Positions 11,656 to 63,732 of a stretch of DNA of 64,000 nt are shown one piece after another (within the stretch, counting starts at the first letter, position 1; every line of letters starts with the position of its first letter). The stretch comes from Candidatus Zhuqueibacterota bacterium (lineage in GTDB: Bacteria > Zhuqueibacterota > Zhuqueibacteria > Residuimicrobiales > Krinioviventaceae). The notes below the pieces were generated by a model. The model had not been told where the DNA came from. It made no database searches and was given only the letters and a program-made list of their open reading frames with translations. A program made the position numbers and the translations under genes. Location of the stretch: the NCBI GenBank assembly GCA_016928775.1, contig JAFGKD010000071.1, positions 84,164 through 148,163 of the forward strand, written 5' to 3'.

Positions 11656-12729
11656 ATGCAAAACAACAGCCTTGATGATCTCTTGTATAAAATAGCTGAT
11701 GCACGGCGAAAGCCGGATTTCTCGAACCTTTTAGCCATTCTTCAGCGCCGGGTGCCGTTGCGGCCGACGTGTTTCGAATTTACCATCAATAATACAATTT
11801 ACCGGCATGTCACCGGCAAATCCGTCCCGCAAGATGGTGACGGACTCGGCTGGTCGCGCTACCTTGTCGAGGCGTTCGCAAAGCTTGGCTATGATTTTGC
11901 TGTTGTCGGCGGCTGGCACTTGAACGCGTTAGTGTTTCCATTGGGAGAAAAGCATACGGTCAAGAGCAAATCGCTCAATGACGGTGTCATGATCACTGAT
12001 CGCGCCAGCTTTGAAAAATATGCCTGGCCGGATTTGGATGTTTCGCGGCTGCAACCGCTGGCTTTGATGGCGAATGAGCTTCCTGATGGCATGAAAATTA
12101 TCTGCTGCGGATATGAAGGCATTTTAGAGACAACCATCGATCTCGTTGGTTTTGAAAACCTCTGTTTGTTGCTGTATATGGATCCTGAATTGACCGCGGA
12201 AATTTTCCGGCAGGTTGGCTCACGAATCCTGTCCTATTACCGGCATGTGGTGCAGTTCGACAGTGTCGGTGCGATCATCGCCAATGATGATTGGGGTTTC
12301 AAAACCCAAACCATGTTGGCACCGGATGATCTCCGTCGACTCGTTTTTCCGTGGTATCAAAAAATCGTTGACTTTGTGCACGCCAGCGGCAAACCGGTTA
12401 TCCTGCACTCGTGCGGCAATCCTGAGGGGATCATTGAGGATATAATCGAAAAGATGAGATTTGACGGCAAGCATTCTTACGAAGATACCATTGTGCCAGT
12501 GGAGCAAGCGATAGAGCGTTGGAGCGATCGCATCGCGATTATTGGCGGCATCGACGTAGATTTCCTGAGCACCCGTTCGGTCGATCAAATCCGCGAGCGC
12601 ACTCAAAGTATTCGCGATATCGCCATGCGTAAAGGTGGTATCGCCATTGGCTCGGGCAATTCCATTCCGGATTATATCCCGATTGACTCTTATTGCGCCA
12701 TGCAGGAAACAGCATTGGGCCTGGATTAA
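11656..12729 (+). CDS. Uroporphyrinogen decarboxylase (URO-D)-like family protein, MtaA/MtbA-type putative methylcorrinoid methyltransferase
   Basis: 357 aa. PVILHSCGNPEGIIEDII contains the HxCG zinc-ligand motif of MtaA-type methyltransferases. C-terminal GGIAIGSGNSIP. It lacks the HemE N-terminal PxWxMRQAGR block. Confidence 0.6.
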   Translation: MQNNSLDDLLYKIADARRKPDFSNLLAILQRRVPLRPTCFEFTINNTIYRHVTGKSVPQDGDGLGWSRYLVEAFAKLGYDFAVVGGWHLNALVFPLGEKHTVKSKSLNDGVMITDRASFEKYAWPDLDVSRLQPLALMANELPDGMKIICCGYEGILETTIDLVGFENLCLLLYMDPELTAEIFRQVGSRILSYYRHVVQFDSVGAIIANDDWGFKTQTMLAPDDLRRLVFPWYQKIVDFVHASGKPVILHSCGNPEGIIEDIIEKMRFDGKHSYEDTIVPVEQAIERWSDRIAIIGGIDVDFLSTRSVDQIRERTQSIRDIAMRKGGIAIGSGNSIPDYIPIDSYCAMQETALGLD

Positions 12730-12771
12730 GGAAAGAGTGGACCATATGTATGACGAATCAAGGAGGTGGTT

Positions 12772-25677: not shown

Positions 25678-27126
25678 TTATTTCACCAGCGGATCTGCCA
25701 ATTCTTTTTGCAGATGTAACAATTTGGCACGCAGTTCATTTATCTTTCGCTCATATTGCGGATCGCCGGCCAAATCAACCATCTCCAAAGGATCTTTTTC
25801 AAGATTATACAGGATCGTTTTATCGATTTTGGGATAATAAATCAATTTGAATGTCCCGTCACACACCATGCGTTGCACATCAATATAACCGCCATAGATG
25901 AGATCATAGTTTTTCTGCTTTTTGCCGTGGATGAGCGGCATCAGGCTGTGGAAATCGACGTCATCCGGTTTTGTAATGCCGGCCAGCTCAAGAGCAGACG
26001 GCATAATGTCCTGCAGATAAACCGGTGTTTCGATCTTTGTATTTTTCTTCACACCAGGTCCAGACACAAACAATGGGACGCGCACGCTGTGATCGTACAT
26101 GTTTTGTTTGCCCATCAAACCATGTCGGCCGCATGCCAAACCATGATCAGCGGTGAAAAAGATATAGGTGTTATCCGCTTTGCCGCTCGCTGCCAGGGCA
26201 TCGAGAATACGACCGACCTGGGCGTCCATGTGGGTGATAATGGCATAATACTCCTGGCGATGTACTTTGACGGCGTACTCGGTGCGAGGAAAAGGCGCGA
26301 GCCGTTCATCGCGCAAATCTTTGCCGCACCCGATGGCTTCTTTTTCCGGATAAAGCGGCTGATAATTTTTGGGCAACGGAATGGTATCGAGCGGATATCG
26401 ATCAACGTATTCTTTCGGAGACTGTCGGGGATCGTGCGGCGCATTAAAGGCGAGATACATAAAAAACGGCGTGTCCTTGTCTTTGGTCTGGTTGAAAAAA
26501 TCGATGGCATGATTGCCTAATACCTGACTCCAGTGTGTGCCGCCCTCCCAGTAGCCGCCCAGCGACGTGTCATAGGGAGACCAGGCATCCGGTTCGTTCT
26601 CTATTGGACGGTCATACCCCGGGTGGTGTTTGGCCGGATTTTCCCAGTCAAAATAATCTTTTGGCATACCGGGGCGAACATCGCGAACATGATCGTAAAT
26701 GTCGTGTGGATTTATATCTTTGACGTGCCACTTGCCGCTCATATAGGTTTCATAACCGGCGTTTTTCATAAATTGCGACCAGAACCGCCCATTTTCCTGT
26801 TCGGATTTGAGCTCCGGTTCAAGCTCCTTCGCTTCCCACAAAAATCTGCCGGTATTGAGCATCGTCCGGCTTGCCACGCAGACCGCTCCGTGCCAGGCAC
26901 CCATATTGTAAGCATGCGTAAAGGTGACACCATTTCGCACGAGACGGTCCAGGTTGGGTGTCTGGACATCAGTGTAACCCAGGGCATTGATGGTATCAAA
27001 AGCCTGATCATCGGCAAAGATGAATAGAATGTTTGGCTGTTTTTTCTGAACCAGTTTCGCGCAGCCGGACAGGAACAGAAACCCGGCACAACCGGCAGAT
27101 GTTTTGAGGAAACGGCGACGGTTCAT
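25678..27126 (-). CDS. Formylglycine-dependent sulfatase (S1 family), Tat signal, C-x-A-x-R variant
   Basis: NRRRFLKTSAGCAGFLFLSGCA Tat/lipoprotein signal. The signature reads AVCVASRTMLNTGR, with Ala in place of the usual Pro. Other sulfatase blocks are intact. Confidence 0.85.
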   Translation of the reverse strand: MNRRRFLKTSAGCAGFLFLSGCAKLVQKKQPNILFIFADDQAFDTINALGYTDVQTPNLDRLVRNGVTFTHAYNMGAWHGAVCVASRTMLNTGRFLWEAKELEPELKSEQENGRFWSQFMKNAGYETYMSGKWHVKDINPHDIYDHVRDVRPGMPKDYFDWENPAKHHPGYDRPIENEPDAWSPYDTSLGGYWEGGTHWSQVLGNHAIDFFNQTKDKDTPFFMYLAFNAPHDPRQSPKEYVDRYPLDTIPLPKNYQPLYPEKEAIGCGKDLRDERLAPFPRTEYAVKVHRQEYYAIITHMDAQVGRILDALAASGKADNTYIFFTADHGLACGRHGLMGKQNMYDHSVRVPLFVSGPGVKKNTKIETPVYLQDIMPSALELAGITKPDDVDFHSLMPLIHGKKQKNYDLIYGGYIDVQRMVCDGTFKLIYYPKIDKTILYNLEKDPLEMVDLAGDPQYERKINELRAKLLHLQKELADPLVK

Positions 27127-27247
27127 ATAATTCTCCTCAAATCCACTCTAATCAATTTTTGTAGTTTTGTGTCTTCGTGTGAGTGAATTTTTCAAGCTAA
27201 ATATTTTGCCTCAGCGTCTTTTGTGTGCGAACGGCAACTGGTCAGTT

Positions 27248-28579
27248 TTAATATGTATGTCCATGTACTTTTGACGTTCGAAAGCCAAAGACAACAATGA
27301 CCACAAAACAGAGCATCGGCAGGACAAACGAGATCCGGGTACTCGATATGCTAAAGAGACCAAGATGAAAATCGCTCATATCCATGATCGCAGCTTGCAG
27401 CGGTGGCATAATGGAGCCGCCGCCAATGGCCATGATCAAACCGGCAGCACCGAGTTTCGCATCATCCCCAAGTCCTTTGAGGGCAATCCCGTAGATCGTC
27501 GGGAACATAAGGGACATACAGGCGGATACGGCGATCAGACAATAAAGACCAACCATGCCATGAAAGAAAATTGTTCCCAGGATCAAGGCAAAACCACCAA
27601 TTGCCAGGCTCATTAAAAGTCCACCCGGGCTGAAATATTTCAACAAATAGGTGCAAATGAACCGGCTGGTGCAAAAGATCGACATAGCGATGATATTGTA
27701 TCCCTGCGCCGTTTCCTTGGCCATACCGAGCTCATTCATAGCGTATTGAATGATGAATGTCCAGCACATAATCTGAGCACCCACGTAAAAAGTTTGGGCG
27801 ATCACGCCTTCAGTGTATTTTTTATTCGCCCACAATCGTCTGAGTGTTTTGCCGACGTTGAGTTGTCTATCTTCCTCTCCTTTACTACGCGGCAGTTTCG
27901 ATATCAAAAATACGAGAAAAAAGATCAAAACAATCAGACCAATCGCAACATACGGACCGCGCAGCACACTGAGATCATGCACTTGCAATGCCTGGAACTG
28001 TTGTGGTGCTGTTTGCTGCAAGATTTCTCGCTCCGCCTCCGAGGTTTTGTCCAGACGTGCGAGAATGAGCTGCTGCGCGACAAACATGCCGGTGAGTGAT
28101 CCGATAGGATTGAACGCCTGGGAAAAATTCAATCGACGGGTTGCGTTCTCTTCCGGCCCCATCGCGAGCACATAGGGATTGGCGCTGGTTTCTAAAAAGG
28201 AGAGTCCGCAGGTCAATATAAAATAGGAAATTAAAAAAGCCCAAAAGGCCATGAGATGACTGGATGGAATGAACAACAACGCTCCAATGGAATAGAGTGC
28301 CAGGCCCACCAGAATACCGCTCTTGTAGGTGAAACGTTTGATGAATAATGCCGCTGGTATGGCCATAACGCAGTAACCACCGTAAAAAGCAAACTGTACC
28401 AATGAGCTCTCAAAATGACTGATCAGCATAATTTGTTTGAACGCTGCCACCATTGGATTTGTCACGTCGTTGGCAAATCCCCAGAGGGCAAACAAACTGG
28501 TAACAAGAATAAACGGGTAGAGTATCTCTTGCGGGATAACGCTCTTTTTCTCAACATTGACTGCGGTGATTTCGGCCAT
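27248..28579 (-). CDS. MFS sugar permease, FucP (L-fucose:H+ symporter / glucose-galactose transporter) family
   Basis: 443 aa, 12-TM. The N-terminal PFILVTSLFALWGFANDVTNPMVAAFKQI block is characteristic of the FucP/GGP family. Confidence 0.8.
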   Translation of the reverse strand: MAEITAVNVEKKSVIPQEILYPFILVTSLFALWGFANDVTNPMVAAFKQIMLISHFESSLVQFAFYGGYCVMAIPAALFIKRFTYKSGILVGLALYSIGALLFIPSSHLMAFWAFLISYFILTCGLSFLETSANPYVLAMGPEENATRRLNFSQAFNPIGSLTGMFVAQQLILARLDKTSEAEREILQQTAPQQFQALQVHDLSVLRGPYVAIGLIVLIFFLVFLISKLPRSKGEEDRQLNVGKTLRRLWANKKYTEGVIAQTFYVGAQIMCWTFIIQYAMNELGMAKETAQGYNIIAMSIFCTSRFICTYLLKYFSPGGLLMSLAIGGFALILGTIFFHGMVGLYCLIAVSACMSLMFPTIYGIALKGLGDDAKLGAAGLIMAIGGGSIMPPLQAAIMDMSDFHLGLFSISSTRISFVLPMLCFVVIVVFGFRTSKVHGHTY

Positions 28580-28605
28580 ATAGGTGTTCCTCTCGATTGA
28601 TTTCT

Positions 28606-29001
28606 CTAAATTTCTTTCCTGTATCCTTGTTCGGGCGTTGACTCTTCTTGTTGATCCATCTCAAAAATGCGCTGCAAAAGCTGCCATTTTTCACCCGCAG
28701 AAGTCTCGGTGCCAGTCTTTTGAAATTTGGCAACATGCGCCTCCCATTTCGCTTGCCCTGGCAAAGTGGCCAGTTTGGCCATTGCCGTATCGTGTTGAAA
28801 ATCCGGAGTTGTGTCCATGATCATAAAAAGCCGGGTACCCGCAATATAAATTTCCATATCAATGATACCGACGTCTTTCATTCCCCGGGTAATCTCCGGC
28901 CAAACTGCACCCCTGGCATGGACCTTTTTGTATTCCTCAATGAGCGCTGGATCGTCGCGCAGTTTTAATGTTTTGCAGTAACGCTTGAATCGTGTTGACA
29001 T
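28606..29001 (-). CDS. L-rhamnose mutarotase (RhaM/DUF718) family sugar mutarotase
   Basis: 131 aa. KRYCKTLKLRDDPALIEEYKKVHA...GIIDMEIY matches RhaM-family mutarotases. Confidence 0.7.
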   Translation of the reverse strand: MSTRFKRYCKTLKLRDDPALIEEYKKVHARGAVWPEITRGMKDVGIIDMEIYIAGTRLFMIMDTTPDFQHDTAMAKLATLPGQAKWEAHVAKFQKTGTETSAGEKWQLLQRIFEMDQQEESTPEQGYRKEI

Positions 29002-40403: not shown

Positions 40404-40406
40404 ATT

Positions 40407-41663
40407 TTAAGGTTTGGCGACTATCCGGTCGATAAAAGTTGCCAACGTCTGATGCTCAACAGCAGAATTTTTGCGCAGCACATTAGACATTAGCGCTACC
40501 AGATAAATCCGGCCATCCGCTTGCTCGACGATCGCTACCGAGTTCATGTAATTTTCCACATTCCCCATATATTTGCCGCAGGTGAAGCCAGGCTCTTCCT
40601 TGCAACGATATTGACTGCCGGACTTGAAGTAGACGGCTGCTTTTTCCAGTGCCGGAGAAGAGGCGTAACGAATGCGTCTCGCGGTCATGTACATCAGCCG
40701 TTTTATCTCCAGACTGGACCATTCGTCGACAAGGCGGCCTCGTTCGAGGGCGATCAAAAATTGTACCAGCGCTTTGGGATTACCGTAGCTGCCGCCGCCT
40801 GGCACAATGCTCTGACCCGTTTTGGTGAAAAAACTGCCCAAGCGCCAGTCATTTTCTGAAATGCCGATGGTGCGCAAGGGATCATTCACAGTAGAAATAG
40901 CGATTTGAGAGAGCTGAGATTTTGGCGTGTTCTTAAAATATGCAACTTCCTCTTCATAACTGACTGGATAGCGCTCGCCGAATTCGCGCATCAGGATCAA
41001 TTCCTTCCACACGATGCTGGCCGCGGCATTTGCACTGGCCGAGAGCATATGATCCGCCCATTCATAGAGCGAAAAAACGTCTCCCTCTCTGATGGCTCGG
41101 GAGGCAAACGTGTTGGATTCGACGTTAAAAACAGGGACCTCGTGCGAGTCATATATGATCCAGCGATCGGCTTTGATTTGTCTCGTCTTCAACAACCTAT
41201 GGCGGTTTTCAACTGATTCAGGATAAAGACGCTGCAGTTCGGTGAATAGACCGGCAGCAATCGCCAGCTTGCCAACGCTGCCGGGCATAAACTGCCGGTT
41301 CATCTGCTGCGAGGCAAAGCGAAGAGGCTTGCCAGGTGTTATATCGAGAAGTGCCAGGGAATAGCTCTCATCCCGATTTGGAAAGAGAGCTTGTATCTCT
41401 TTTTGCAGTTTGGCATTTTCCGCTGGTAATACTGCAAGACTGTCGCCGCGAGCACCCAGCAGGTTCAACTTGATGTCGGTCAGAATTCTCAAGCCACCCG
41501 ACGGCGGTTTAGTACCTTTAAATTTTCCCTCAATCACCTGCGCCAATCGCGCCAAACGCCGAATGCCTGTGTATTCATAACCATCAAAAGGGTACGCCAT
41601 CGCAGTCGTCAATTGCAGCAACAGTGAAATTGCTAAAAGCCCTGTACATAATTTCATTTTCAT
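40407..41663 (-). CDS. Secreted beta-lactamase-fold serine hydrolase
   Basis: Signal peptide. The SVGK (S-x-x-K) motif is near the N-terminus of the mature protein. 418 aa. Confidence 0.5.
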   Translation of the reverse strand: MKMKLCTGLLAISLLLQLTTAMAYPFDGYEYTGIRRLARLAQVIEGKFKGTKPPSGGLRILTDIKLNLLGARGDSLAVLPAENAKLQKEIQALFPNRDESYSLALLDITPGKPLRFASQQMNRQFMPGSVGKLAIAAGLFTELQRLYPESVENRHRLLKTRQIKADRWIIYDSHEVPVFNVESNTFASRAIREGDVFSLYEWADHMLSASANAAASIVWKELILMREFGERYPVSYEEEVAYFKNTPKSQLSQIAISTVNDPLRTIGISENDWRLGSFFTKTGQSIVPGGGSYGNPKALVQFLIALERGRLVDEWSSLEIKRLMYMTARRIRYASSPALEKAAVYFKSGSQYRCKEEPGFTCGKYMGNVENYMNSVAIVEQADGRIYLVALMSNVLRKNSAVEHQTLATFIDRIVAKP

Positions 41664-41688
41664 GATTGTCTCGCGGATAATGTGATCG

Positions 41689-54680: not shown

Positions 54681-56486
54681 CTATTTCTTTTCGATCAGCC
54701 GACATACCTTCAGGCCATTTTCCGCCAACATCGCAGGTATTTCTTTGATCGCATTTATATCATATTGCTGAATATCAGGAGAGAGCTCCTGCCACGGCAG
54801 TAAATTATCGTGCAGTTTTCGCTCGTCGTCGCGCTCACCGTAGGTCCACCCGGACATAATTTTATCGGCCATCCATCGGTTGTGCTCCATTCGAGCCAAT
54901 TGATAAACAACCTCTACGTCGCTGGTGAAATCATATTCCGGCCGGGTGTCATGCAATGGCGCCAATTCACAGCCGATAGCGCGTAATTTAACCGGAATAT
55001 GCTCGGCCAAACTACGATTGCTCACTTTGATTTCCTCCGGCAGCTCGTTCCAGGGTACCATTGCCGGTTTGGGCCTGGGCTCGGCATCAATAGTACATTC
55101 GCCTCGCTGATAGCGCTGCCGGAAATCCTGTTTCTTTTGATCAAAGATGTCTTGTTCCCGTCGCAGATAGCAGAGGTGGAAATGTCTGGCTAACGCTTCC
55201 AGTTCTTCTTCGATGATGACCTTTTTATCATAAGCTTGAAAAAACGGATTGATGGCTATAACGTTTTGGGCTTGTGTTATCCCGGACAATGGCGGCAGAT
55301 CATCGTTGTGGCAAATGATATAAAAAATCCGTTTAGCGAGCGTTTGTCTGAGCGCATGAAAGGTTAAAATTTGCTCGGATATATTGTTTTGGCAGAGATA
55401 AACCACCGAAATGGAACCAATAAATTCCTGGTACTGCGACTGACGGGAGCTCGAGCTTTCGGATAAATGCTGTTTAAAATCAACATCTGCAATGAGGGGC
55501 AGATCGGGATAGCGAGTGTAAAAATCCATTTTATTGGATTCGGCTTTTCGATCAATGATGGTCAGGCGAATTTTTTGACAATCAATGAATTGGCCGATAC
55601 GAATCAATTGCATGGTCAATGCTTCGCCAAAATCGCCGAATCCAACGACCAGGCAGTGCCTGGGCTTTGTGACATATTCGGCTGACTTTTGGTAATGAAC
55701 AGGTGCAAAAATGTCCGGGGCGAATTTTTTACCAATGATGCGCGCGGCATTGTAATAGCCGTTATAGAGGCGCCCGTCAAAATAGGGAGTTGTTTTGGTG
55801 ACGACATCCAGATCGTTCAGCTCGGCTAACAGCTTTGTATTGCTGATATGCGCCCAGGCGAGGAGCAGGCTGGATGTGCTTTCTTTTTTAATGTCCAGCG
55901 CCAGACGGAGAATGTGGATATTGGTAATGTCGTCACTGGTTGTGGCGATGAGGTATTTCGCCCGTCCTACTCCGGCTAATCGCAAACGTGAAAATGGTGA
56001 ATCGGACGGCGATATATGAATGACATACCGCGTGGAGAGCCACTCCCGGGTAGACTCGTTGGTATCGATATAGACGATTCTGGTTTTTGGCTCAGCCTGG
56101 ATAAAGCTCTCCAGCGTATGTCGGGCATGCTCACTTGCTCCATACAAAATGACATGGTTTTTCCAGAGGGAGATGCGTCGGTATAAAATGGTCCTCCGAA
56201 AAACCGCGACATAAATTTTAGTCGCTCCCCAAATGAGCAGAACGGTGCCGGTCCAGCTCGCTAATTTGATTAAAATATTATGATTTTTGTCAAAGTCGTA
56301 CTCGAGAATGAACAATTGCAAGGTGTCATACAGTGCCCGTTGCATCACATCAAGAGTGACACCGTTGACGCCATAATATTGAATATACCCCGTTATGCCC
56401 AAAGCGAGTGTGATCACACAGCTCACGACAGGCAGCAACGCTCCCTTGAAACTGTCGCGCAGCCATCTTTTTTTTTCGGGTTGCAT
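54681..56486 (-). CDS. Membrane protein with two Rossmann/RCK(TrkA-N)-like domains and a C-terminal RyR (ryanodine-receptor) domain
   Basis: N-terminal TM helices. HVILYGASEHARHT and HCLVVGFGDFGEA are Rossmann starts. C-terminal MEHNRWMADKIMSGWTYGERDDERKLHDNLLPWQEL matches the bacterial RyR domain pattern. Confidence 0.55.
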   Translation of the reverse strand: MQPEKKRWLRDSFKGALLPVVSCVITLALGITGYIQYYGVNGVTLDVMQRALYDTLQLFILEYDFDKNHNILIKLASWTGTVLLIWGATKIYVAVFRRTILYRRISLWKNHVILYGASEHARHTLESFIQAEPKTRIVYIDTNESTREWLSTRYVIHISPSDSPFSRLRLAGVGRAKYLIATTSDDITNIHILRLALDIKKESTSSLLLAWAHISNTKLLAELNDLDVVTKTTPYFDGRLYNGYYNAARIIGKKFAPDIFAPVHYQKSAEYVTKPRHCLVVGFGDFGEALTMQLIRIGQFIDCQKIRLTIIDRKAESNKMDFYTRYPDLPLIADVDFKQHLSESSSSRQSQYQEFIGSISVVYLCQNNISEQILTFHALRQTLAKRIFYIICHNDDLPPLSGITQAQNVIAINPFFQAYDKKVIIEEELEALARHFHLCYLRREQDIFDQKKQDFRQRYQRGECTIDAEPRPKPAMVPWNELPEEIKVSNRSLAEHIPVKLRAIGCELAPLHDTRPEYDFTSDVEVVYQLARMEHNRWMADKIMSGWTYGERDDERKLHDNLLPWQELSPDIQQYDINAIKEIPAMLAENGLKVCRLIEKK

Positions 56487-57459: not shown

Positions 57460-58237
57460 TTTTCAAATCTCCTCTTTTATGAAATGTGCCGGTAAAAGAT
57501 CAGCATTTTTAAGGTGACATCAAAGCTTAAAATAGCTTTTAATGGCGTATTCGAACCAGGGTGCGGGAAGACAGGACTTGAAGAATCGCCGACATAAAAA
57601 ATTGGACTCGGAATCCTCAATCCTAACGCAAGTTCACCATTCCATTGAATAGACATAGGTTTTTTATTAGACTTGCCTCCATTTTCGTTCTTTGATATAA
57701 CTTATGGGTCACTACAGATTTTGATGATGTTGAGTGACAAATGAGTGAAATCGGTATGAATGAGTTCATCGAGTCCGGATATCTCTTGCGTCCAGAGGTG
57801 CAAATGCCTTTCACTCCCGGGATGCACCAGACGCCCAATAATCAAGAGCATGGCAATCTCGATTTGACGTGTGCTGAATCCGCATGTTTTAAGGCATTGA
57901 CGCAGATGCAGTTTGTTGAAAAAAGTGAAATCCAGGTATTCACCGCCAATGCATGGCTTCATTACGGTTGGTCAGGATCTCCCACTTTTCTTTGGCAATG
58001 GGTAGACGGCCCAAAGACAATTTTAATGGTTTTTGGGCTGTTTTTATATATTCTGTGGTGAACTTTTAAGAAATTGTTTAAAAACCGGGTGACATAGCCG
58101 CAGATCTTTCACTCGAGGGCTGACCAGTAGTTAATAAATTTCGAGAATATCCTCCATTGCACAAATCCGATAATATTCATAATTTCCTGTTGTTTTGTGA
58201 GCAGAATAGATTGGGTGAACCTTAGCACGAACATTGT

Positions 58238-59383
58238 ATGACGCATCGAGAACGACTCTTAACCTCTCTAAACCACAAAGAACCGGATCGCGTGCCAATC
58301 GATCTGGCGAGTACGCAAGTGACCGGCATTTCATTGACTGCCTATACAAATCTGAGATCCTGTCTGGGATTGCCGGAACAGCAACCGGTGATCTGCGATC
58401 GAATCCAGCAGATTGTACTTCCGCACGATGAGGTTTATGCAAAGTTCGGTATCGATACACGCGGCCTGTGTCCGGTGATGAATCATACGGATTTTGATGA
58501 CCGGCAAGATGGCGAACTCCTCCGTCATGTTGATGAATGGTCGTTTACCTATCAACGACATAAAAAGACCGGGCTCTGGTATGACCTGGTCAAACATCCA
58601 TTGGACGCGGAGATGATCACGGCAGACGAGGTTGTTGCGTATCAATTCCCCCGGGGAGACGAGCCTCGACGAATTGCCGGTTTGAGAAAACAAGCTGAAC
58701 AGTTCCGCAACTCCGGCTATGCGGTCGTGCTCAAAAGCGCGTGCGCCGGCTTGTTTGAAATGCTTATACGAATTCGTGGCATGCAGAACGCCATGCTCGA
58801 TTTGATACTCAATCAAAAAATTGCCGCTCTTATCCTGGACGGCGTTTTACGCTACAAGCTCGAGTATTGGGACATGGCGTTAGCTGAATTGGGTGATCTG
58901 GTGGATGTTCTCGCTGAGGGTGATGATTTTGGCACGCAAACTTCACAACTGATTTCTCTCGAAACCTGGCGACAGATGATCAAACCGCGACAGCAGGAGC
59001 TCATCCAATCCATACGAGGTAAAGCGCCAGCCGCCAAACTGTTTTTCCATTCATGTGGCATGATACGTCCCTTTTTGCCGGAATTCATTGACATGGGCAT
59101 CGATATCATCAATCCGGTGCACATCACGGCAGCGGGCATGCAACCAAAAGAGCTGAAAAAAGATTTTGGCAGTGAGGTCGTTTTTTGGGGCGGTGGCATA
59201 AATACGCAGGAAACCTTGCCGCATGGTACCCCGGACCAGGTCAAGCAAGAGGTCAAACGCCTTTTGGATATCTGGGCGCCACACGGCGGCTATGTGTTCA
59301 ATACGATTCATAACATCCAGGCCGATGTGCCACCGGAAAATATCGTTGCCATGTTTGAAGCTGTACATGAATTTTTTTTATGA
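58238..59383 (+). CDS. URO-D-like family methyltransferase (MtaA/MtbA-type, putative methylcorrinoid:acceptor or substrate:corrinoid methyltransferase)
   Basis: 381 aa. LFFHSCGMIRPFLPEFIDMGIDIINPV carries the HxCG zinc motif. It lacks the HemE N-terminal signature. The stop lies 9 bp before the start of the sulfatase gene. Confidence 0.65.
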   Translation: MTHRERLLTSLNHKEPDRVPIDLASTQVTGISLTAYTNLRSCLGLPEQQPVICDRIQQIVLPHDEVYAKFGIDTRGLCPVMNHTDFDDRQDGELLRHVDEWSFTYQRHKKTGLWYDLVKHPLDAEMITADEVVAYQFPRGDEPRRIAGLRKQAEQFRNSGYAVVLKSACAGLFEMLIRIRGMQNAMLDLILNQKIAALILDGVLRYKLEYWDMALAELGDLVDVLAEGDDFGTQTSQLISLETWRQMIKPRQQELIQSIRGKAPAAKLFFHSCGMIRPFLPEFIDMGIDIINPVHITAAGMQPKELKKDFGSEVVFWGGGINTQETLPHGTPDQVKQEVKRLLDIWAPHGGYVFNTIHNIQADVPPENIVAMFEAVHEFFL

Positions 59384-59392
59384 GCTGTTTCC

Positions 59393-61195
59393 ATGTTAAA
59401 TAGAAGACACTTTTTAAAAGCAATCGGCGCCGGTAGTGTGATGATGACGCTTGTCGGCGAGTTTTCTTGCCGAAAAACTAGCCCAAAACCCAATGTCATT
59501 TTGATCGTGACCGACGATCAGGGGTATGGCGACCTCGGCTGTCACGGAAATCCGATTGTTCGGACGCCGAATATGGACATGCTGCACGCCGAGAGCGTCC
59601 GTTTGACCAACTTTCACGTCGGGCCAACCTGCGCGCCAACACGCGCGTCGCTGATGACCGGACGCTACTGCAATCGAACCGGCGTCTGGCACACCGTGAT
59701 GGGACGATCGCTACTACGCGAAGACGAAGTGACCATGGCGGACGTGTTTTGGTCCGCCGGTTATCAAACGGCACTATTCGGTAAATGGCACCTTGGTGAT
59801 AACTACCCCTTCCGACCGCAAGACCGGGGCTTTGATGAGAGTCTGATCCATGGTGGTGGTGGTGTCACACAAACGCCGGATTACTGGGATAATGACTATT
59901 TTGATGATACCTATTTCCGCAACGGTCAACCCGTAAAGGTCAAAGGCTATTGCACGGATGTGTGGTTTGATTATGCCCTGAAATTTATCGAAAAAAACGC
60001 GGATAAACCGTTCTTTTGCATGATCACCACGAACGCACCGCATGGGCCATATCATGTGGCTGAAAAATACAGTGAACCTTATGCGCAACAGGGACTCACT
60101 GCGCAACGTTCCAGGTTTTACGGCATGATCACCAACATCGATGAGAATCTCGCCAGGCTGGATACTCATCTCAAAACCCTTGGGCTGTTTGATCATACCA
60201 TCACTATTTTTATGACTGACAACGGTACTGCTGCCGGCGCTGATGTCGATGCGCACGGATTTGTCACGGATGGCTACAACGCCGGCATGCGCGGCAAAAA
60301 AGGCAGCGAATACGACGGCGGTCATCGTGTGCCCTGCTTTATTCGCTGGCCGTCGGGTGGTATTGGCGGCGGAAACGATGTGACTCGACTCACGGCGCAT
60401 ATCGATATATTGCCAACGTTGATGGACCTGTGTGCCATCCCGCGCACGCCGGAGCATCAGATGGATGGAAAAAGTCTTGTCCCTTTGCTCACGCAGCCGC
60501 AGGCGGAATGGCCTGAGCGTTTTCTGGTGACGGATTCACAACGCATCGAGCATCCCGAGAAATGGCGAAAAAGCGCGGTGATGACCGATCGCTGGCGTTT
60601 GATCAATGGATCGGAACTCTATGATATCCAAACTGATCCCGGGCAAGTATTGGACATCGCGTCGGAAAATGAAGCCATTGTCCGGCAGCTGCGCGCGGCT
60701 TATGAATCGTGGTGGAGCGACGTCTCAAAACGATTTCATGAATATTGCCATATACGCATTGGCGCCGAGCAGGAAAATCCGGTTCGGCTCACCGCACACG
60801 ATTGGCACCACTTTCCCATGCCATGGAATCAGGCGCTCATCCGACAGGGTCACCTCTCGAACGGCTTCTGGGCAGTTGACATCGTGCGGGATGGACCGTA
60901 CGAATTTACCCTGCGGCGGTGGCCGCGCGAACTGAATAACGGTATCAATCAGGGTCTCCAGGCAAAGAGCGGAATCCCCGGCATTGACGACATGCCGCCC
61001 GGAAAAGTTTTCAATATTTTCAAAGGAAAAATAAAAATCGCCGATATTGAAAAAGAGCAAGCCCTAAAGGCGGATGCCAGGGAGCTTGTGTTCACGCTCA
61101 CACTAAAAAAAGGAAAAACAACCTTAAAAACCTGGTTCTTTGATGCTGGCGGCGATACGCTTGGCGCATATTATGTCTATGTCAAAAAATTATGA
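59393..61195 (+). CDS. Formylglycine-dependent sulfatase (S1 family) with Tat signal and C-terminal extra beta domain
   Basis: NRRHFLKAIGAGSVMMTL Tat motif. VGPTCAPTRASLMTGRY signature. ~150 aa C-terminal extension. Confidence 0.9.
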   Translation: MLNRRHFLKAIGAGSVMMTLVGEFSCRKTSPKPNVILIVTDDQGYGDLGCHGNPIVRTPNMDMLHAESVRLTNFHVGPTCAPTRASLMTGRYCNRTGVWHTVMGRSLLREDEVTMADVFWSAGYQTALFGKWHLGDNYPFRPQDRGFDESLIHGGGGVTQTPDYWDNDYFDDTYFRNGQPVKVKGYCTDVWFDYALKFIEKNADKPFFCMITTNAPHGPYHVAEKYSEPYAQQGLTAQRSRFYGMITNIDENLARLDTHLKTLGLFDHTITIFMTDNGTAAGADVDAHGFVTDGYNAGMRGKKGSEYDGGHRVPCFIRWPSGGIGGGNDVTRLTAHIDILPTLMDLCAIPRTPEHQMDGKSLVPLLTQPQAEWPERFLVTDSQRIEHPEKWRKSAVMTDRWRLINGSELYDIQTDPGQVLDIASENEAIVRQLRAAYESWWSDVSKRFHEYCHIRIGAEQENPVRLTAHDWHHFPMPWNQALIRQGHLSNGFWAVDIVRDGPYEFTLRRWPRELNNGINQGLQAKSGIPGIDDMPPGKVFNIFKGKIKIADIEKEQALKADARELVFTLTLKKGKTTLKTWFFDAGGDTLGAYYVYVKKL

Positions 61196-62694
61196 CCTCT
61201 TCTCCTGAACACTATATCACTGTTTCGCTCAACGACGGTTTTTCTGTTGTGCATGTGCGAGCACAGCCCGGTGAACGGCTTTTTGATGTGTTGCGCAGAG
61301 GCGGCAAGCCAGTGCATGCGCCGTGCGGCGGCAAAGGAACGTGCAAAAAGTGTCTGGTCACAATCGATGGTATTGGCGAGGCTTTGGCATGCCAGTTTGT
61401 GGTGCAGCACGATGTCCTCGTACACGTGCCGATATCTCATCGTTTTGCTATTATGGAAGCCCAAAACCTGCACGCCCGCCAGTTTGTTAAAAATCCACCA
61501 AGCGAGGGATTCGGACTGGCGATTGATATCGGTACAACGACAGTGGTTTTGTTTTTGGAAGAGTTGTCCACGTTTCAAGTCATTGATGTCCTCTCTTTCA
61601 TCAATCCGCAAACAACCTATGGCGGGGATGTCATTTCCCGTATCGCCTTTTGTATCGAACAACCGAATGGTCTGGTGACACTGCAGCACATTCTATCGGA
61701 GGCGATAAATCAAACGACAGAGTCTTTGTGTCGGAAAAACCATATCTCTCCACAACGCATTGACAGCATGACTGTGGTCGGAAATACAGTGATGCTGCAT
61801 CTCTTTTGTCGCGTTGATCCACGCTCCATCGCTTATGCGCCGTATACGCCGGTTTTTGTTGATGAGCAGCGGAAACGGGCGCGACAGCTCAACCTTGATG
61901 TCTCTCCCGATGCCCTGGTTACGATTTTGCCATCCATTGCCGGTTATGTGGGGGCAGATATTCTGGCTGGTGTCGCGACAACGGATTTATTAGATCGCGA
62001 TGGATTCACTCTTTATATTGACATTGGCACCAATGGAGAAATTGTCCTGGGTAACAAGGACCGAATTTATTGCTGCGCCACCGCGGCTGGTCCGGCATTT
62101 GAGGGCGCCACAATCGAATGCGGTATTGGCGCGGTGGAGGGCGCTATTTCCGAGTATATCGAGGGTGAGATCACGACGATTGGCGCCGCAGCCCCCGTTG
62201 GTATATGCGGCTCAGGCTTGATCGATATCGTCGCGGAGCTGCTCAATAAAAAATTGATCGATGCCGGTGGTCGCATGGAAAACGAGTTTACTATCGTCAA
62301 GCAAAAAGAGTGCGCGGTGAATCATGACATTGTTCTCACGCCAAAAGATATTCGCGAGGTGCAGTTGGCCAAAGCTGCCATTTATGCCGGCATCCGCACA
62401 TTGTTAAAACACGCTGATGTGTCCATCGACCAGATCGAACGACTCTATCTTGCGGGCGGCTTTGGGTCGACCATTCGCACAAGCAGTGCGATTCGAATCG
62501 GACTGTTACCACAAGAATTGTCCAATCGAATTTTTCCGATTGGCAACAGCGCTGCAACCGGCGCGCGACTTGCTCTGGAATCGCATGCTTTCAGAGCGGA
62601 GATCGACAAGGTGCGTGCGACAGCCGACTATATTGAGCTCTCCATGCGCCCCGATTTTAATGCGTTTTATATCTCCGCGATGGGTTTTGAATAA
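61192..62694 (+). CDS. RACo-type corrinoid reductive activase: N-terminal plant-type [2Fe-2S] ferredoxin + ASKHA (DUF4445) ATPase domain
   Basis: The Cys pattern C-x5-C-x2-C...C (APCGGKGTCKKCLV ... ALACQF) is a 2Fe-2S ferredoxin signature. Next come DIGTTTVVLFL (ASKHA phosphate-1 motif) and a glycine-rich region DIGTNGEIVLG. The start overlaps the sulfatase stop (ATGA). Confidence 0.7.
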   Translation: MTSSPEHYITVSLNDGFSVVHVRAQPGERLFDVLRRGGKPVHAPCGGKGTCKKCLVTIDGIGEALACQFVVQHDVLVHVPISHRFAIMEAQNLHARQFVKNPPSEGFGLAIDIGTTTVVLFLEELSTFQVIDVLSFINPQTTYGGDVISRIAFCIEQPNGLVTLQHILSEAINQTTESLCRKNHISPQRIDSMTVVGNTVMLHLFCRVDPRSIAYAPYTPVFVDEQRKRARQLNLDVSPDALVTILPSIAGYVGADILAGVATTDLLDRDGFTLYIDIGTNGEIVLGNKDRIYCCATAAGPAFEGATIECGIGAVEGAISEYIEGEITTIGAAAPVGICGSGLIDIVAELLNKKLIDAGGRMENEFTIVKQKECAVNHDIVLTPKDIREVQLAKAAIYAGIRTLLKHADVSIDQIERLYLAGGFGSTIRTSSAIRIGLLPQELSNRIFPIGNSAATGARLALESHAFRAEIDKVRATADYIELSMRPDFNAFYISAMGFE

Positions 62695-62700
62695 ACCACA

Positions 62701-63732
62701 TTACCAACGCGACTGGATTGTGTCGATAAATGCGCACAGGTTTTGCGTACTCACTCCGGGTGGCATGCCGCCGCCACAGGAAAAGATAACATGCGATTTA
62801 TCCTCCAGTGTGCTCATCAGTTTTAACGCGGCCTCCCGGACATCTTCAGGTCTGCCGTTTGCCAAAACATCGCGCGGCGGAATATTGCCCAACAGGGTCA
62901 CGCGCTGATGGGTTAATTTTTTCAGCTCATTCATGTCCGTGTCAAAGCCCATGTTGAACAGATTGACGCCCATCTCCGGCAAATAGGGCGCAGATATCCG
63001 ACAGGGCGCATCATTGTGCAGAAATTTGACGCTGACATCACTGTCGAACAAATCTTTAAAATAGGGAAGTGCAAACTCGACAAATTGCGCCTCTCCCAAA
63101 AAGCCGATGATGTCATCGAGCAGCAAAATACCGTCAATCGATGCAAATGACTGGCGCTGCAGATCAAGCCATTGTTTGAGAAAGGTGCTCACCTTGGAGA
63201 GCAGCGTATGGATTTTCTCAGGCTCCATCATCATTGTTGTGAGCAGCTCGGTTGTGCCCATCAGGTAGCTGGCGATATTGAGCGGTCCGCGCGCCACTGC
63301 AAAACGAATTTGATGGCCAATATTTTCGATGTGAGGTTGGGCGAGTTTTAATCGGTTCAACATAAACGGTAACAGGCCGTCGGTTGCGGGATTCGGTTGC
63401 GGCAACGCCTCTATATCCGAGACAGAATGGATTACCTTGTGGGCGTGCGGAAATTCGTTTGCCGGAAAAGTGCTGCGGGCACCGAAAACAGATGGCTCGG
63501 TGCACATGCCGTACTCGGACCAAAATCCTGGTAAAAACAGAACCTCGGGAAAAGTTTCGACAACCTGTTTATTGGCTTTGAACCACATCTCGTCATTGGA
63601 AAAATAGTCCAAAATGGTGATGCCAGTCCAGTTCGGCAGCCAGGGACTGTCGATGATAAAGCCAATGGGTGGCGATGCTGTTGTATCGCCATGAATAATT
63701 TTTAAGAGATTGTTCCATTGATCAAGAGTCAT
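62701..63732 (-). CDS. URO-D-like family methyltransferase (third paralog)
   Basis: 343 aa. HVIFSCGGGMPPG near the C-terminus and FLHNDAPCRISAPYLPEMGVNLFN. Convergent with the RACo gene with a 6 bp gap. Confidence 0.6.
   Translation of the reverse strand: MTLDQWNNLLKIIHGDTTASPPIGFIIDSPWLPNWTGITILDYFSNDEMWFKANKQVVETFPEVLFLPGFWSEYGMCTEPSVFGARSTFPANEFPHAHKVIHSVSDIEALPQPNPATDGLLPFMLNRLKLAQPHIENIGHQIRFAVARGPLNIASYLMGTTELLTTMMMEPEKIHTLLSKVSTFLKQWLDLQRQSFASIDGILLLDDIIGFLGEAQFVEFALPYFKDLFDSDVSVKFLHNDAPCRISAPYLPEMGVNLFNMGFDTDMNELKKLTHQRVTLLGNIPPRDVLANGRPEDVREAALKLMSTLEDKSHVIFSCGGGMPPGVSTQNLCAFIDTIQSRW

Follow-up and report, generated by a model that had tools for sequence, protein, structure and literature searches.

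What is a gene for an exported sulfatase doing next to genes whose products resemble the machinery of corrinoid-dependent methyl transfer? The question is raised by a group of genes in a 64,000-nucleotide stretch of DNA, referred to here as the window, from a metagenome-assembled genome of a candidate division KSB1 sediment bacterium. The gene set consists of URO-D1, a Tat-type S1 sulfatase, RACo and the convergent URO-D2, each present as an open reading frame at the coordinates in Table 1. When the junctions were read in the sequence, the TGA stop codon of URO-D1 was found to end at 59383, 9 nt before the ATG of the sulfatase at 59393. The sulfatase and RACo genes overlap by 4 bp in an ATGA stop/start at 61192-61195, and 6 nt lie between the stop codons of RACo (62694) and URO-D2 (62701). 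A sequence-only reading of this DNA had proposed the same genes, gaps, domain assignments and operon structure, and the ORF check, Pfam searches and junctions agreed with it; the Pfam searches it had called for returned URO-D, Sulfatase, Fer2, Raco_middle and RACo_C_ter matches. It knew of no description of the operon, and we likewise found no published description of a sulfatase operon with URO-D and RACo genes.

Table 1. Positions of the genes discussed, numbered from the first nucleotide of the window
Feature	Position	Strand	Description
URO-D1	58238..59383	+	381 aa, MtaA/URO-D superfamily, first gene of the operon
S1 sulfatase	59393..61195	+	600 aa, formylglycine-type, twin-arginine signal
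RACo	61192..62694	+	500 aa, RACo/RamA-type, [2Fe-2S] ferredoxin, middle domain and ASKHA ATPase
URO-D2	62701..63732	-	343 aa, URO-D family, separate transcription unit convergent to the operon
URO-D3	11656..12729	+	357 aa, URO-D family, HSCG present
Sulfatase, MFS permease and RhaM-type mutarotase trio of the fucose cluster	25678..28992	-	compared with L005 by tblastn

RACo matched Pfam Raco_middle (1.9e-54), RACo_C_ter (6e-75) and Fer2 (1.4e-4), and matched C. hydrogenoformans RACo with an E-value of 5.5e-91 (3zyy; also 4c1n). Its score against NCBIfam AcsV was 372 bits, with a cutoff of 800. Cysteines C45, C51, C54 and C67 and the ASKHA motifs D112-x-G-x-T116 and D277-x-G-T-N-G-E283 were invariant in 27 homologues. 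The earlier reading of this protein as an ATP-dependent reductive activase of corrinoid proteins, of the RACo/RamA type, is solid.

URO-D1 gave a Pfam URO-D match (1.2e-21) confined to residues 144-379, and scored 45-51 bits with MtaA-type NCBIfam models and 20 bits with hemE, all far under the cutoffs. Among solved structures the best match was M. mazei MtaA (4ay7, E 2.5e-14), with HemE next; URO-D1 is also related in structure to MetE, a zinc methyltransferase that needs no cobalamin. The AlphaFold model (pLDDT 94.2, pTM 0.92) has an MtaA-like fold. The HxCG motif pointed out earlier was located at H271-S-C273-G274 and is invariant across 60 orthologues, as are D229-D230-x-G-T-Q and H358-N-x-Q361; orthologues at 52-86% identity are uniformly about 380 aa long. 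The H-x-C motif aligns to the 'lHiCG' of 4ay7, but the third cysteine of the MtaA zinc site is missing from URO-D1, and the protein falls below every curated MtaA model. H271, C273 and H358 probably form a zinc-binding site, and URO-D1 is a candidate substrate:corrinoid methyltransferase (MT I). Identity with HemE was considered for both URO-D1 and URO-D2 and rejected (20 and 55 bits with TIGR01464, cutoff 303), so that neither is a genuine HemE, as the initial proposal had supposed.

The sulfatase matched Pfam Sulfatase (1.4e-56) and SGSH_C (1.7e-11), and its translation contains the formylglycine motif C80-A-P-T-R84. Its nearest solved structure was the exo-4S-kappa-carrageenan sulfatase 6prm (1.9e-53), followed by other carrageenan, GalNAc-6 and S1_19 sulfatases, that is, by carbohydrate sulfatases; the top NCBIfam match was an 'arylsulfatase' model, far under its cutoff. 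The Tat signal claimed for this protein is seen as RRHFLK at residues 4-9, although the Pfam TAT_signal match was weak (17.9 bits, cutoff 22.7). The enzyme is predicted to be periplasmic.

URO-D2 (Pfam URO-D, 5e-37) was nearest by sequence to HemE 4wsh among solved structures (2.3e-14), and scored 57.5 bits with mtaA_cmuA and 55 bits with hemE, both far under cutoff. It might be a diverged uroporphyrinogen decarboxylase that serves the heme pathway in FCB bacteria and has no relation to the operon, which would fit its NCBI name (uroporphyrinogen decarboxylase), its nearest structures, its own convergent transcription unit, and an identity of at least 67% over its best 120 clusters (from KSB1, Calditrichaeota and Ignavibacteria) that resembles that of a core-metabolism gene. 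We consider this very improbable, since its score with the HemE equivalog model is so low, the catalytic Asp and the His of the C-terminal 'GHG' are both replaced by Gly in the alignment to 4wsh, and the N-terminal RQAGR arginines of HemE are absent from its sequence. It also has an invariant Glu in common with corrinoid-linked MtaA-like proteins, and is paired with URO-D1 in L001 and in the sugar operons L098 and L129 of other genomes. No conserved HxC motif was found among URO-D2 orthologues. URO-D2 is possibly a partner methyltransferase. URO-D3 (Pfam URO-D, 7.4e-19), with 'ILHSCGNP' in its translation, may belong to this methyl-transfer set as well; in the Clostridiales locus L058, which includes a corrinoid protein, the gene immediately downstream of RACo is an orthologue of URO-D3 (3e-96).

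Neither phmmer with B12-binding seeds nor a relaxed Pfam scan of the unannotated ORFs detected a corrinoid-binding protein in the window, in agreement with the sequence-only reading, and no cobalamin riboswitch was found there. In other genomes, from unrelated lineages, URO-D1-family genes adjoin corrinoid proteins or RACo cassettes (L010, L015, L058, L076, L127, L132, L139 and L164), and a cassette of corrinoid protein, URO-D+thioredoxin, CobW and RACo recurs beside the family in several lineages. The Bacteroidales locus L015 reads GH78, MFS, URO-D1 (52% identity), corrinoid protein (B12-binding_2 + B12-binding), URO-D+thioredoxin, CobW, Met_synt_B12-like, RACo and two sulfatases. Corrinoid-linked members are scattered over the URO-D1 tree, and L015 is nested in the MFS-linked clade. 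For most URO-D1 orthologues neither a corrinoid protein nor RACo is present within 5-10 kb. Just 3-4 of about 20 loci with long flanks contain a corrinoid protein, an unusually low share for a genuine MT I family. As a rule URO-D1 is accompanied by an MFS transporter and a GFO/IDH/MocA oxidoreductase. This is so for the closest orthologues beyond immediate relatives (L001, L002, L087 and a JGI 265-kb contig), where neither a corrinoid protein nor RACo was seen within 8-10 kb of URO-D1.

The scarcity of corrinoid proteins and RACo at URO-D1 loci would be explained if RACo were a general housekeeping corrinoid activase, its main client a MetH without the SAM-dependent activation domain, its adjacency to the sulfatase a product of genome shuffling, and URO-D1 and URO-D2 corrinoid-free sugar-pathway enzymes, working by zinc alkyl transfer as does the structurally related MetE, or by decarboxylation as does HemE. 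In Phaeobacter and Desulfovibrio, there is genetic evidence that the B12 of MetH is reactivated by ferredoxin+DUF4445 (RamA-like) proteins (PMC5764234). A Raymondbacteria RACo homologue (50% identity) adjoins S-methyl_trans and Pterin_bind genes, which are split MetH modules, and MetH-type modules also lie near RACo in L023, L036, L057 and L080. Because RACo-like proteins also serve methionine synthase, the combination of URO-D and RACo, put forward earlier as a signature of corrinoid methyl transfer, is insufficient as one. The tree of the FCB RACo clade tracks organism phylogeny while neighbourhoods differ and neighbours are mostly unrelated, as expected of a single vertically inherited gene; no neighbour recurs among Bacteroidota and Fibrobacterota homologues (117 Pfam families, each in at most 2 of 81 genes). 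Against this, URO-D genes lie on both sides of RACo in the window, and eight or more independent loci have a URO-D1-family gene directly beside RACo or a corrinoid protein, far above expectation for rare corrinoid genes. A further locus, L005, holds URO-D1 and RACo no more than 5 kb apart in a different arrangement, and the 4-bp overlap with the sulfatase points to co-expression of RACo with glycan genes, not methionine genes. A housekeeping role is possible, and only somewhat less probable than the explanation preferred below.

The URO-D1 family was found in sugar-uptake and glycan loci of many anaerobes, with sugar transporters, glycoside hydrolases and sulfatases as neighbours in L001, L005, L116 and L129. 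The order in L129 is LacI, sugar ABC transporter, URO-D2, URO-D1, with no corrinoid protein in the operon; L116 contains MFS, URO-D1, two sulfatases and a GH141-like protein; GH28, GH63-like and GH76-like proteins lie near URO-D1 in L001, and a KDPG aldolase, a PfkB kinase and a sugar-binding protein near the family member in L132. In the KSB1-like locus L005, URO-D1 (71%) and RACo (55%) stand among two GH29 fucosidases and a GH43, and RACo is followed directly by a rhaM-MFS-sulfatase trio orthologous to 25684-28992 of the window (tblastn: rhaM 75% to 28992-28612, MFS 82% to 28579-27251, sulfatase 77% to 27126-25684). In L005, then, URO-D1 and RACo again stand with fucoside and sulfatase genes, but in a second arrangement, independent of the first. 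The tight URO-D1-sulfatase-RACo unit was kept in the near relatives L003 (84-90% protein identity) and L004, and this exact coupling to the sulfatase was seen only there. Nor is the operon inside the fucose degradation cluster, where it had been placed: the fucose genes lie at about 15-35 kb, some 23-30 kb away, and the genes next to the operon encode GH97, a GH140-like protein, a TrkA/RyR protein and a lipoprotein-like product. As sulfatases make up about 8% of window genes (4 of about 50), some of the adjacency could be chance.

To our knowledge, the characterised URO-D-type MT I enzymes of bacterial O-demethylases all act on aryl methyl ethers (Acetobacterium, Desulfitobacterium, Moorella). 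MFS transporters also carry aromatic acids. The substrate of a corrinoid-dependent system could be a sulfated methoxylated aromatic such as a seagrass, algal or lignin phenolic, an arylsulfatase freeing the hydroxyl needed by classical aryl O-demethylases and URO-D1 demethylating the ring methoxy group. PMC8630106 and PMC6739815 also relate to such O-demethylases, and the 'arylsulfatase' model and a sulfotransferase adjoining RACo and a URO-D1-like gene in L010 are in keeping with an aromatic compound. This is nonetheless improbable, given that the closest structures to the sulfatase are carbohydrate sulfatases, that LacI regulators, sugar ABC transporters, glycoside hydrolases, KDG-pathway genes and GFO/IDH/MocA oxidoreductases abound near URO-D1, and that none of the loci examined showed aromatic-ring catabolic genes. 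Demethylation of O-methyl inositols such as pinitol and ononitol, in place of glycan sugars, is an equally improbable reading, in which the KSB1 sulfatase linkage would be incidental. The commonest URO-D1 partners are a sugar/inositol-type MFS transporter and one or two GFO/IDH/MocA proteins (L001, L002, L087, L106, L115, L118 and the JGI contig), and inositol 2-dehydrogenase belongs to the latter family. That family is very broad, however, no other iol-pathway genes were identified, and the neighbours in the KSB1 lineage are fucosidases, GH43, mutarotase and sulfatases.

Our preferred explanation, to which we assign a probability of about 0.4, is that the three co-transcribed genes, together with URO-D2, belong to a corrinoid-dependent demethylase acting on methyl ethers that come from glycans. 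The Tat-exported sulfatase would take sulfate off an oligosaccharide or sugar in the periplasm, and the desulfated product would then be imported. In the cytoplasm the URO-D1 TIM barrel, as substrate-specific MT I, would pass the O-methyl group to the Co(I) of a corrinoid protein, from which a second methyltransferase would move it to tetrahydrofolate or a thiol. Any corrinoid that had slipped into the Co(II) state would be reduced again by RACo, with ATP and through its [2Fe-2S] cluster. Genes for the corrinoid protein and for the methyl-acceptor methyltransferase would have to lie elsewhere in the genome. What the analysis shows is the order of the genes, their domains, the conserved motifs, the fold and the neighbourhoods seen in other genomes; we infer that zinc is bound, that URO-D1 depends on a corrinoid, in which direction the methyl group moves and what the substrate is. 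The corrinoid O-demethylation of methylated sugars suggested by the sequence-only reading is partly supported by the corrinoid/RACo and glycan contexts elsewhere, while its methylated-sugar substrate is deduced from context. The substrate may be methylated fucose or another O-methyl sugar, less probably an O-methyl cyclitol or a methoxylated aromatic. Short of proof, the related genomes suggest that anaerobes remove methyl groups from sugars by a B12-dependent route.

All four open reading frames (ORFs) assigned to this region by the sequence-only reading were confirmed exactly, and they are collected in the table with the other window features discussed here. URO-D1, an S1 sulfatase with a putative Tat signal and RACo, a member of the superfamily of the RACo/RamA-type ATP-dependent reductive activases of corrinoid proteins, form an operon, with URO-D2 convergent to it. 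The spacer between URO-D1 and the sulfatase is 9 nt, the sulfatase stop and the RACo start overlap in ATGA, and 6 nt separate the RACo stop from the URO-D2 stop that faces it. NCBI annotates URO-D1 (EH223_01695, candidate division KSB1) as a 233-aa 'hypothetical protein' covering 61% of the ORF; since more than 100 orthologues (52–86% identity) are all approximately 380 aa long, the 381-aa ORF is the real gene. The gap before URO-D1 is empty but for two overlapping ORFs (86 and 106 aa), neither of them matching Pfam. Promoter and terminator scans gave counts no higher than the shuffle level, and the window contains no Rfam family and hence no cobalamin riboswitch. Just upstream of the operon region lies a membrane protein combining TrkA_N (NAD-binding) with a C-terminal ryanodine-receptor repeat (RyR), which is also found in L004, a near relative (L numbers denote comparison loci in other genomes). 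Our leading interpretation, a tentative one with a probability of about 0.4, is that the operon takes part in corrinoid-dependent methyl-ether demethylation tied to glycan degradation.

Features of the window discussed in the text
Feature	Position	Strand	Length	Domains and matches
CotH kinase protein	1687–4755	−	1022 aa	
URO-D3	11656–12729	+	357 aa	URO-D family, HSCG motif
ORF after URO-D3	12766–13542	+	258 aa	
ASST–PhoD fusion	16636–19347	−	903 aa	
RhaM mutarotase–MFS–sulfatase trio	25.7–29.0 kb			
Fucose-type catabolic block	~29–35 kb			
TLC/MFS–HEAT protein	within 37557–44601		948 aa	
PPDK_N protein	within 37557–44601		970 aa	
TrkA_N–RyR protein	54681–56486	−	601 aa	
Gap before URO-D1	57460–58237		778 bp	
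URO-D1	58238–59383	+	381 aa	Pfam URO-D 1.2e-21 (residues 144–379 only)
Sulfatase	59393–61195	+	600 aa	Pfam Sulfatase PF00884 1.4e-56, SGSH_C
RACo	61192–62694	+	500 aa	Pfam Fer2, Raco_middle 1.9e-54, RACo_C_ter 6e-75
URO-D2	62701–63732	−	343 aa	Pfam URO-D 5e-37

The assignment of the third gene of the operon to the RACo/RamA superfamily proved secure, residues 96–496 matching C. hydrogenoformans RACo (3zyy/4c1n) at 5.5e-91. Like that protein and methanogen RamA it has [2Fe-2S] ferredoxin, middle and ASKHA domains. The Fer2 domain scored 22.1 bits against a Pfam cutoff of 21, and across 27 homologues neither the cluster cysteines C45, C51, C54 and C67 nor the ASKHA motifs DxGxT and DxGTNGE vary. 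Unlike C. hydrogenoformans RACo it is 500 rather than 631 residues long, its residue 96 meeting chain residue 194, and it is not encoded beside CoFeSP or acetyl-CoA synthase genes. Scores against the AcsV (NF040756, 372 bits, cutoff 800) and RamA (TIGR04270, 156 bits, cutoff 500) models place it within the superfamily and outside both named subfamilies. Propanediol dehydratase, the B12-dependent enzyme of fucose catabolism, was considered as a partner of RACo and rejected on general enzymological background: it uses adenosylcobalamin and has its own reactivase, while the Co(I) produced by RACo-type activases serves methyl transfer.

The view that URO-D1 and URO-D2 are not HemE held up, as they scored 20.2 and 55 bits respectively against the hemE equivalog TIGR01464, which has a cutoff of 303. 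The HemE alignment of URO-D1 is confined to its C-terminal third. A structure model of URO-D1 (pLDDT 94.2) has a URO-D-type TIM-barrel fold, and its top match among solved structures was M. mazei MtaA (4ay7; E 2.5e-14, TM-score 0.66/0.74), followed by HemE structures and then the cobalamin-independent methionine synthase MetE. Like MtaA and MtbA (TIGR01463), URO-D1 combines a TIM barrel with an H-x-C-G motif, H271-x-C273 aligning to the HiCG of 4ay7 at the equivalent strand end. Unlike MtaA, it is only 19% identical to 4ay7 and falls far under the curated cutoffs (47, 51 and 45 bits against TIGR01463, NF004889 and NF040654 for MtaA/MtbA/CmuA, with cutoffs of 235–400), and the distal cysteine that is the third zinc ligand of MtaA ('PGCG') is replaced. 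Four motifs are invariant in 60 URO-D1 orthologues: H271-S-C273-G274, D229-D230-x-G-T-Q, N292-P293 and H358-N-x-Q361. The invariant residues are located at or just past the ends of predicted beta strands 224–230, 267–273, 290–293 and 352–354, strand ends being the usual place of TIM-barrel active sites. H358 is close to the position of the replaced cysteine and possibly substitutes for it; a His/Cys/His zinc site is plausible. The N-terminal region of approximately 140 residues is unmatched by Pfam URO-D, with predicted beta strands within residues 74–119.

The sulfatase begins MLNRRHFLK, with a hydrophobic stretch after RRHFLK; the Pfam TAT_signal match is weak, at 17.9 bits and below the cutoff of 22.7. 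It contains the formylglycine motif C80-A-P-T-R84 (C/S-x-P-x-R) and is homologous to carrageenan S1 sulfatases (1.9e-53). Choline-O-sulfate was rejected as its substrate, the choline-sulfatase model scoring 98 bits against a cutoff of 433.

The residues by which HemE acts on and binds its substrate are the N-terminal RQAGR arginines, Asp86 and His339 (human numbering). Alignment of URO-D2 to P. aeruginosa HemE (4wsh) confirmed that the catalytic residues are not retained: the Asp of 'SDIL' and the His of 'NLGHG' are both replaced by Gly, and the N-terminus (PPIGFIIDSPWLP) lacks the Arg pair. URO-D2 scored 57, 56 and 41 bits against TIGR01463, NF004889 and NF040654 (cutoffs 235–400), and neither zinc-motif cysteine is conserved among its orthologues. 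Its best 120 clusters, all at least 67% identical, came from KSB1, Calditrichaeota and Ignavibacteria/Melioribacter, and all are annotated 'uroporphyrinogen decarboxylase' although the HemE catalytic residues are absent. From this distribution URO-D2 looks like a core function of these lineages; it is a possible candidate for a methylcorrinoid:THF (or thiol) methyltransferase. The third family member, URO-D3, has an orthologue (3e-96) directly after RACo in the Clostridiales locus L058. An ORF 36 nt past URO-D3 belongs to no Pfam family (DUF3052 matched weakly, E 0.068) and has an N-terminus that is CheY/flavodoxin-like in look. It was rejected as a cryptic corrinoid protein, having no DxHxxG motif and no B12-binding match even at E ≤ 1.

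In agreement with the sequence-only reading, the 64-kb window contains no corrinoid-binding protein, no ORF being B12-binding in any test run (PF02310/PF02607). Nor does the window contain a Pterin_bind or MtrH-type gene or any other recognisable methyl-acceptor methyltransferase, an MttB homologue, or the URO-D+Thioredoxin_3 protein found in a cassette of relatives.

The operon had been placed inside a fucan and fucose degradation neighbourhood. The window is indeed rich in glycan genes, including four S1 sulfatases, a GH29 fucosidase and GH43-like, GH97 and GH140-like (apiosidase-like) proteins; the placement itself was overstated, as the operon lies 23–30 kb from the fucose block, with transporters, glycosyltransferases and other genes between. 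Because sulfatases account for approximately 8% of the window genes, finding one next door would be no rarity even by chance. The window also encodes several proteins of unusual architecture. An arylsulfotransferase (ASST) beta-propeller is fused to a PhoD-like phosphatase domain in a protein positioned between a GH29 fucosidase and a sulfatase. Two large proteins share one region: the first joins a TLC ATP/ADP-transporter-like/MFS membrane part to HEAT repeats, and the sole recognisable part of the second is a C-terminal PPDK_N (PEP-utilising, ATP-binding) domain. A secreted protein with CotH kinase, lamin-tail and chitobiase-C domains carries a type IX secretion sorting tail, which would fit an FCB-group organism.

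Conservation of the link to the sulfatase stood in part. URO-D1, sulfatase and RACo are kept together in the near relatives L003 (84–90% protein identity) and L004. The upstream neighbours in L003, an 86%-identical relative, are wholly different, which indicates that the three-gene unit moved as a block. In the more distant, KSB1-like L005 (URO-D1 71% and RACo 55% identical) the arrangement differs, the order being GH29/3-keto-hydrolase, URO-D1, pentapeptide protein, GH29, GH43, RACo, RhaM, MFS and sulfatase. The last three are 75–82% identical to the products of window positions 28992–25684. URO-D1 and RACo therefore stay by fucoside and sulfatase genes through a rearrangement, and these gene orders make L005 the best evidence in the KSB1 lineage for what would be a functional association. 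The source contig and L005 are the only contigs common to the URO-D1, RACo and URO-D2 match lists (best 120 clusters each). A sulfatase linkage is repeated in another phylum, in L015 and in L116 (MFS–URO-D1–sulfatase–sulfatase with a GH141-like protein).

Components missing from the window are found with URO-D1 relatives elsewhere. A cassette present in Bacteroidales, Spirochaetes and Clostridia (L015, 6139–11503; L022, L026, L035, L043, L070, L072, L076, L084 and L132) comprises a corrinoid protein, a URO-D+Thioredoxin_3 protein of approximately 450 aa with 'FFVCG' at the MtaA HxC position, CobW, sometimes a Met_synt_B12-like protein, and RACo. In the Bacteroidales locus L015 the order is GH78 rhamnosidase, MFS, URO-D1 (52%), corrinoid protein, URO-D+thioredoxin, CobW, Met_synt_B12-like, RACo and two sulfatases. 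L132 has KDPG aldolase, PfkB kinase, corrinoid protein, URO-D1-like, flavin reductase, sugar-binding protein, URO-D+thioredoxin, CobW and RACo. URO-D1-like genes lie beside RACo in L010, L076, L081 and L058, and a corrinoid protein accompanies URO-D1-family genes in L015, L132, L127, L139, L164, L076 and L058. We estimate, rather than compute, that such repeated adjacency to genes as rare as those for corrinoid proteins is well above chance. In the URO-D1 tree the corrinoid-linked members are dispersed, and L015 is nested in an MFS-linked clade, the sister of the KSB1 clade. The Marinilabiliaceae locus L010 (1–5643) encodes CobW, a Met_synt_B12-like protein, RACo, a URO-D1-like protein and a PAPS-type sulfotransferase (PF13469), and on its gene content would be a different link of a methyl-transfer gene set to sulfate-ester metabolism.

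Several observations speak against corrinoid methyl transfer. Most URO-D1 orthologues have neither a corrinoid protein nor RACo within reach in the flanks scanned, and a corrinoid protein adjoins URO-D1 in perhaps 15–20% of long-flank loci; classical families of substrate:corrinoid methyltransferase (MT I) usually have the corrinoid protein encoded alongside. The dominant URO-D1 module is instead with MFS and a GFO/IDH/MocA oxidoreductase (L001, L002, L087–L089, a JGI 265-kb contig, L106, L115 and L118), joined in L087 by a Tat-signal GFO/IDH/MocA paralogue and a Fer4_16 protein. The module is strongly conserved and suggests a defined small-molecule pathway, at a guess for a methylated sugar or cyclitol. 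In L129, LacI, a sugar ABC transporter, URO-D2 and URO-D1 occur together, and the 14.5 kb of this locus include no corrinoid protein.

The contexts of RACo itself are varied. A RACo profile was scanned over species-representative genomes, and in Bacteroidota and Fibrobacterota the RACo neighbours comprised 117 Pfam families in 81 genes, none in more than two. One homologue (L006, 50% identity) is found among GH2, GH20 and GH29 genes, and the neighbours of another (L093, 60% identity) are unrelated. In a neighbour-joining tree the FCB RACo clade tracks organism phylogeny while gene contexts vary, which is how one general-purpose activase per genome would look. A Raymondbacteria homologue (50% identity; L094, 10001–15407, MFYX01000090) has S-methyl_trans and Pterin_bind as neighbours, each in a gene of its own, together with a 328-aa ORF that matches no Pfam family, and looks from this gene content like the activase of a split methionine synthase. 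There is genetic evidence that ferredoxin+DUF4445 proteins, which have the same domain architecture as the window RACo, reactivate B12 for MetH lacking an activation domain (Price et al. 2018, PMC5764234). RACo beside a URO-D gene is therefore not on its own an O-demethylase signature. On this evidence, which is comparative and partly contradictory, a housekeeping role for RACo (for example with MetH), with the URO-D proteins doing corrinoid-independent sugar chemistry, is the main rival explanation and a serious one, in our judgement somewhat less probable than the demethylation reading. It has to accommodate the association of URO-D1 with RACo that survives rearrangement in L005, and, unlike the MetH-reactivating proteins (PMC5764234), the window RACo has URO-D genes and a sulfatase as neighbours and no methionine-synthase modules.

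The closest known kind of system to the demethylation pathway we favour is the four-component O-demethylase, consisting of MT I, a corrinoid protein, a methyl-acceptor methyltransferase (MT II) and an activating enzyme. To our knowledge, the substrates described for such systems are without exception aryl methyl ethers. Examples are known from Acetobacterium dehalogenans, Desulfitobacterium hafniense, Moorella (Mtv) and Methermicoccus (MtoABCD) (PMC8630106). As in these systems, the window has a URO-D/MtaA-superfamily gene beside a RACo-type activase, and L015, L132 and L076 cluster the full set of methyltransferase, corrinoid protein, second methyltransferase and activase. Unlike them, the window has no corrinoid protein or recognisable MT II, its genes are co-transcribed with a predicted periplasmic sulfatase, the contexts are of glycan and sugar uptake rather than aromatic, and URO-D1 has its extra N-terminal region. 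With no adjacent corrinoid protein and with scores below all curated family thresholds, the window operon would not count as a member of this class. A likeness by analogy, through the L015 and L132 clusters, is reasonable.

Should MtqA, the methylcorrinoid:THF methyltransferase of Eubacterium limosum, belong to the URO-D family, a THF methyltransferase role would be possible for URO-D2 or the cassette's URO-D+thioredoxin protein. The E. limosum systems pair MtqA with the corrinoid protein MtqC and differ in having an MttB-family MT I and quaternary amines as substrates (PMC8604678, PMC12155760). As the host is not a methanogen, coenzyme M would be an unlikely acceptor.

The order of the genes, their domains and motifs, the fold and the context in other genomes are established; in the following scheme the metal, cofactor dependence, direction and substrate are inferred. 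The putatively Tat-exported sulfatase would desulfate a glycan fragment in the periplasm, and the desulfated fragment would be imported. URO-D1 would then pass the O-methyl group to Co(I) on a corrinoid protein whose gene lies elsewhere, the putative zinc site of URO-D1 acting as Lewis acid, as zinc does in MtaB/MtaA chemistry. THF or a thiol would next receive the methyl group from a second methyltransferase, possibly URO-D2 or a URO-D+thioredoxin homologue encoded elsewhere, and RACo would carry out the ATP-driven repair of oxidised Co(II). As to the substrate, the L005 context suggests methyl-fucose, the KDG-pathway genes of L132 methyl-uronate and the MFS–GFO/IDH/MocA module methyl-cyclitols; sulfated methoxy-aromatics are possible.

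A broader proposal, which we regard as doubtful, makes URO-D1 the founder of a widespread methyltransferase family in which URO-D2 and URO-D3 are its partners or paralogues. These enzymes would depend on a corrinoid, be activated by RACo and cleave aliphatic methyl ethers in sugars that sulfated or methylated glycans release (O-methyl-fucose, -xylose, -galactose or -glucuronate). The family would occur in KSB1, Bacteroidales, spirochaetes, Thermotogae and Clostridia, wired in KSB1 to periplasmic desulfation, and would give the P450 sugar demethylase its first anaerobic counterpart. We know of no sugar demethylase other than this O2-dependent P450, which belongs to an unrelated protein family and, instead of transferring the methyl group, oxidises it. 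The cytochrome P450 6-O-methyl-D-galactose demethylase is found in polysaccharide-degradation loci of marine Bacteroidetes (PMC6292453). It would be a functional analogue in removing sugar methyl ethers, the proposed system being O2-free. A full-text literature search of limited coverage found no URO-D/MtaA-like or DUF4445/RACo genes linked to sulfatases, glycoside hydrolases or sugar demethylation. Within the same limited coverage no corrinoid-dependent sugar demethylation was described, the sugar-demethylation matches concerning the P450 system only. Since the L015 and L132 clusters are complete gene sets, the idea is directly testable.

For sugars derived from algal, plant and microbial polysaccharides, methyl ethers stand in the way of glycolysis; such sugars include 6-O-methyl-galactose (porphyran), 2-O-methyl-fucose and 2-O-methyl-xylose (rhamnogalacturonan II) and 4-O-methyl-glucuronate (xylan). 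If the demethylation reading favoured above is right, both the substrate class and the genomic wiring would be new for corrinoid O-demethylases, whose chemistry would widen from aryl to alkyl ethers, and thousands of genes annotated 'uroporphyrinogen decarboxylase' would gain a function. Anaerobes of sediments and guts would have a route to remove sugar methyl groups, which would link glycan degradation to B12 demand and C1 pools (methyl-THF) and explain in part why methylated glycans resist breakdown, or how they are turned over, in the anoxic carbon cycle.
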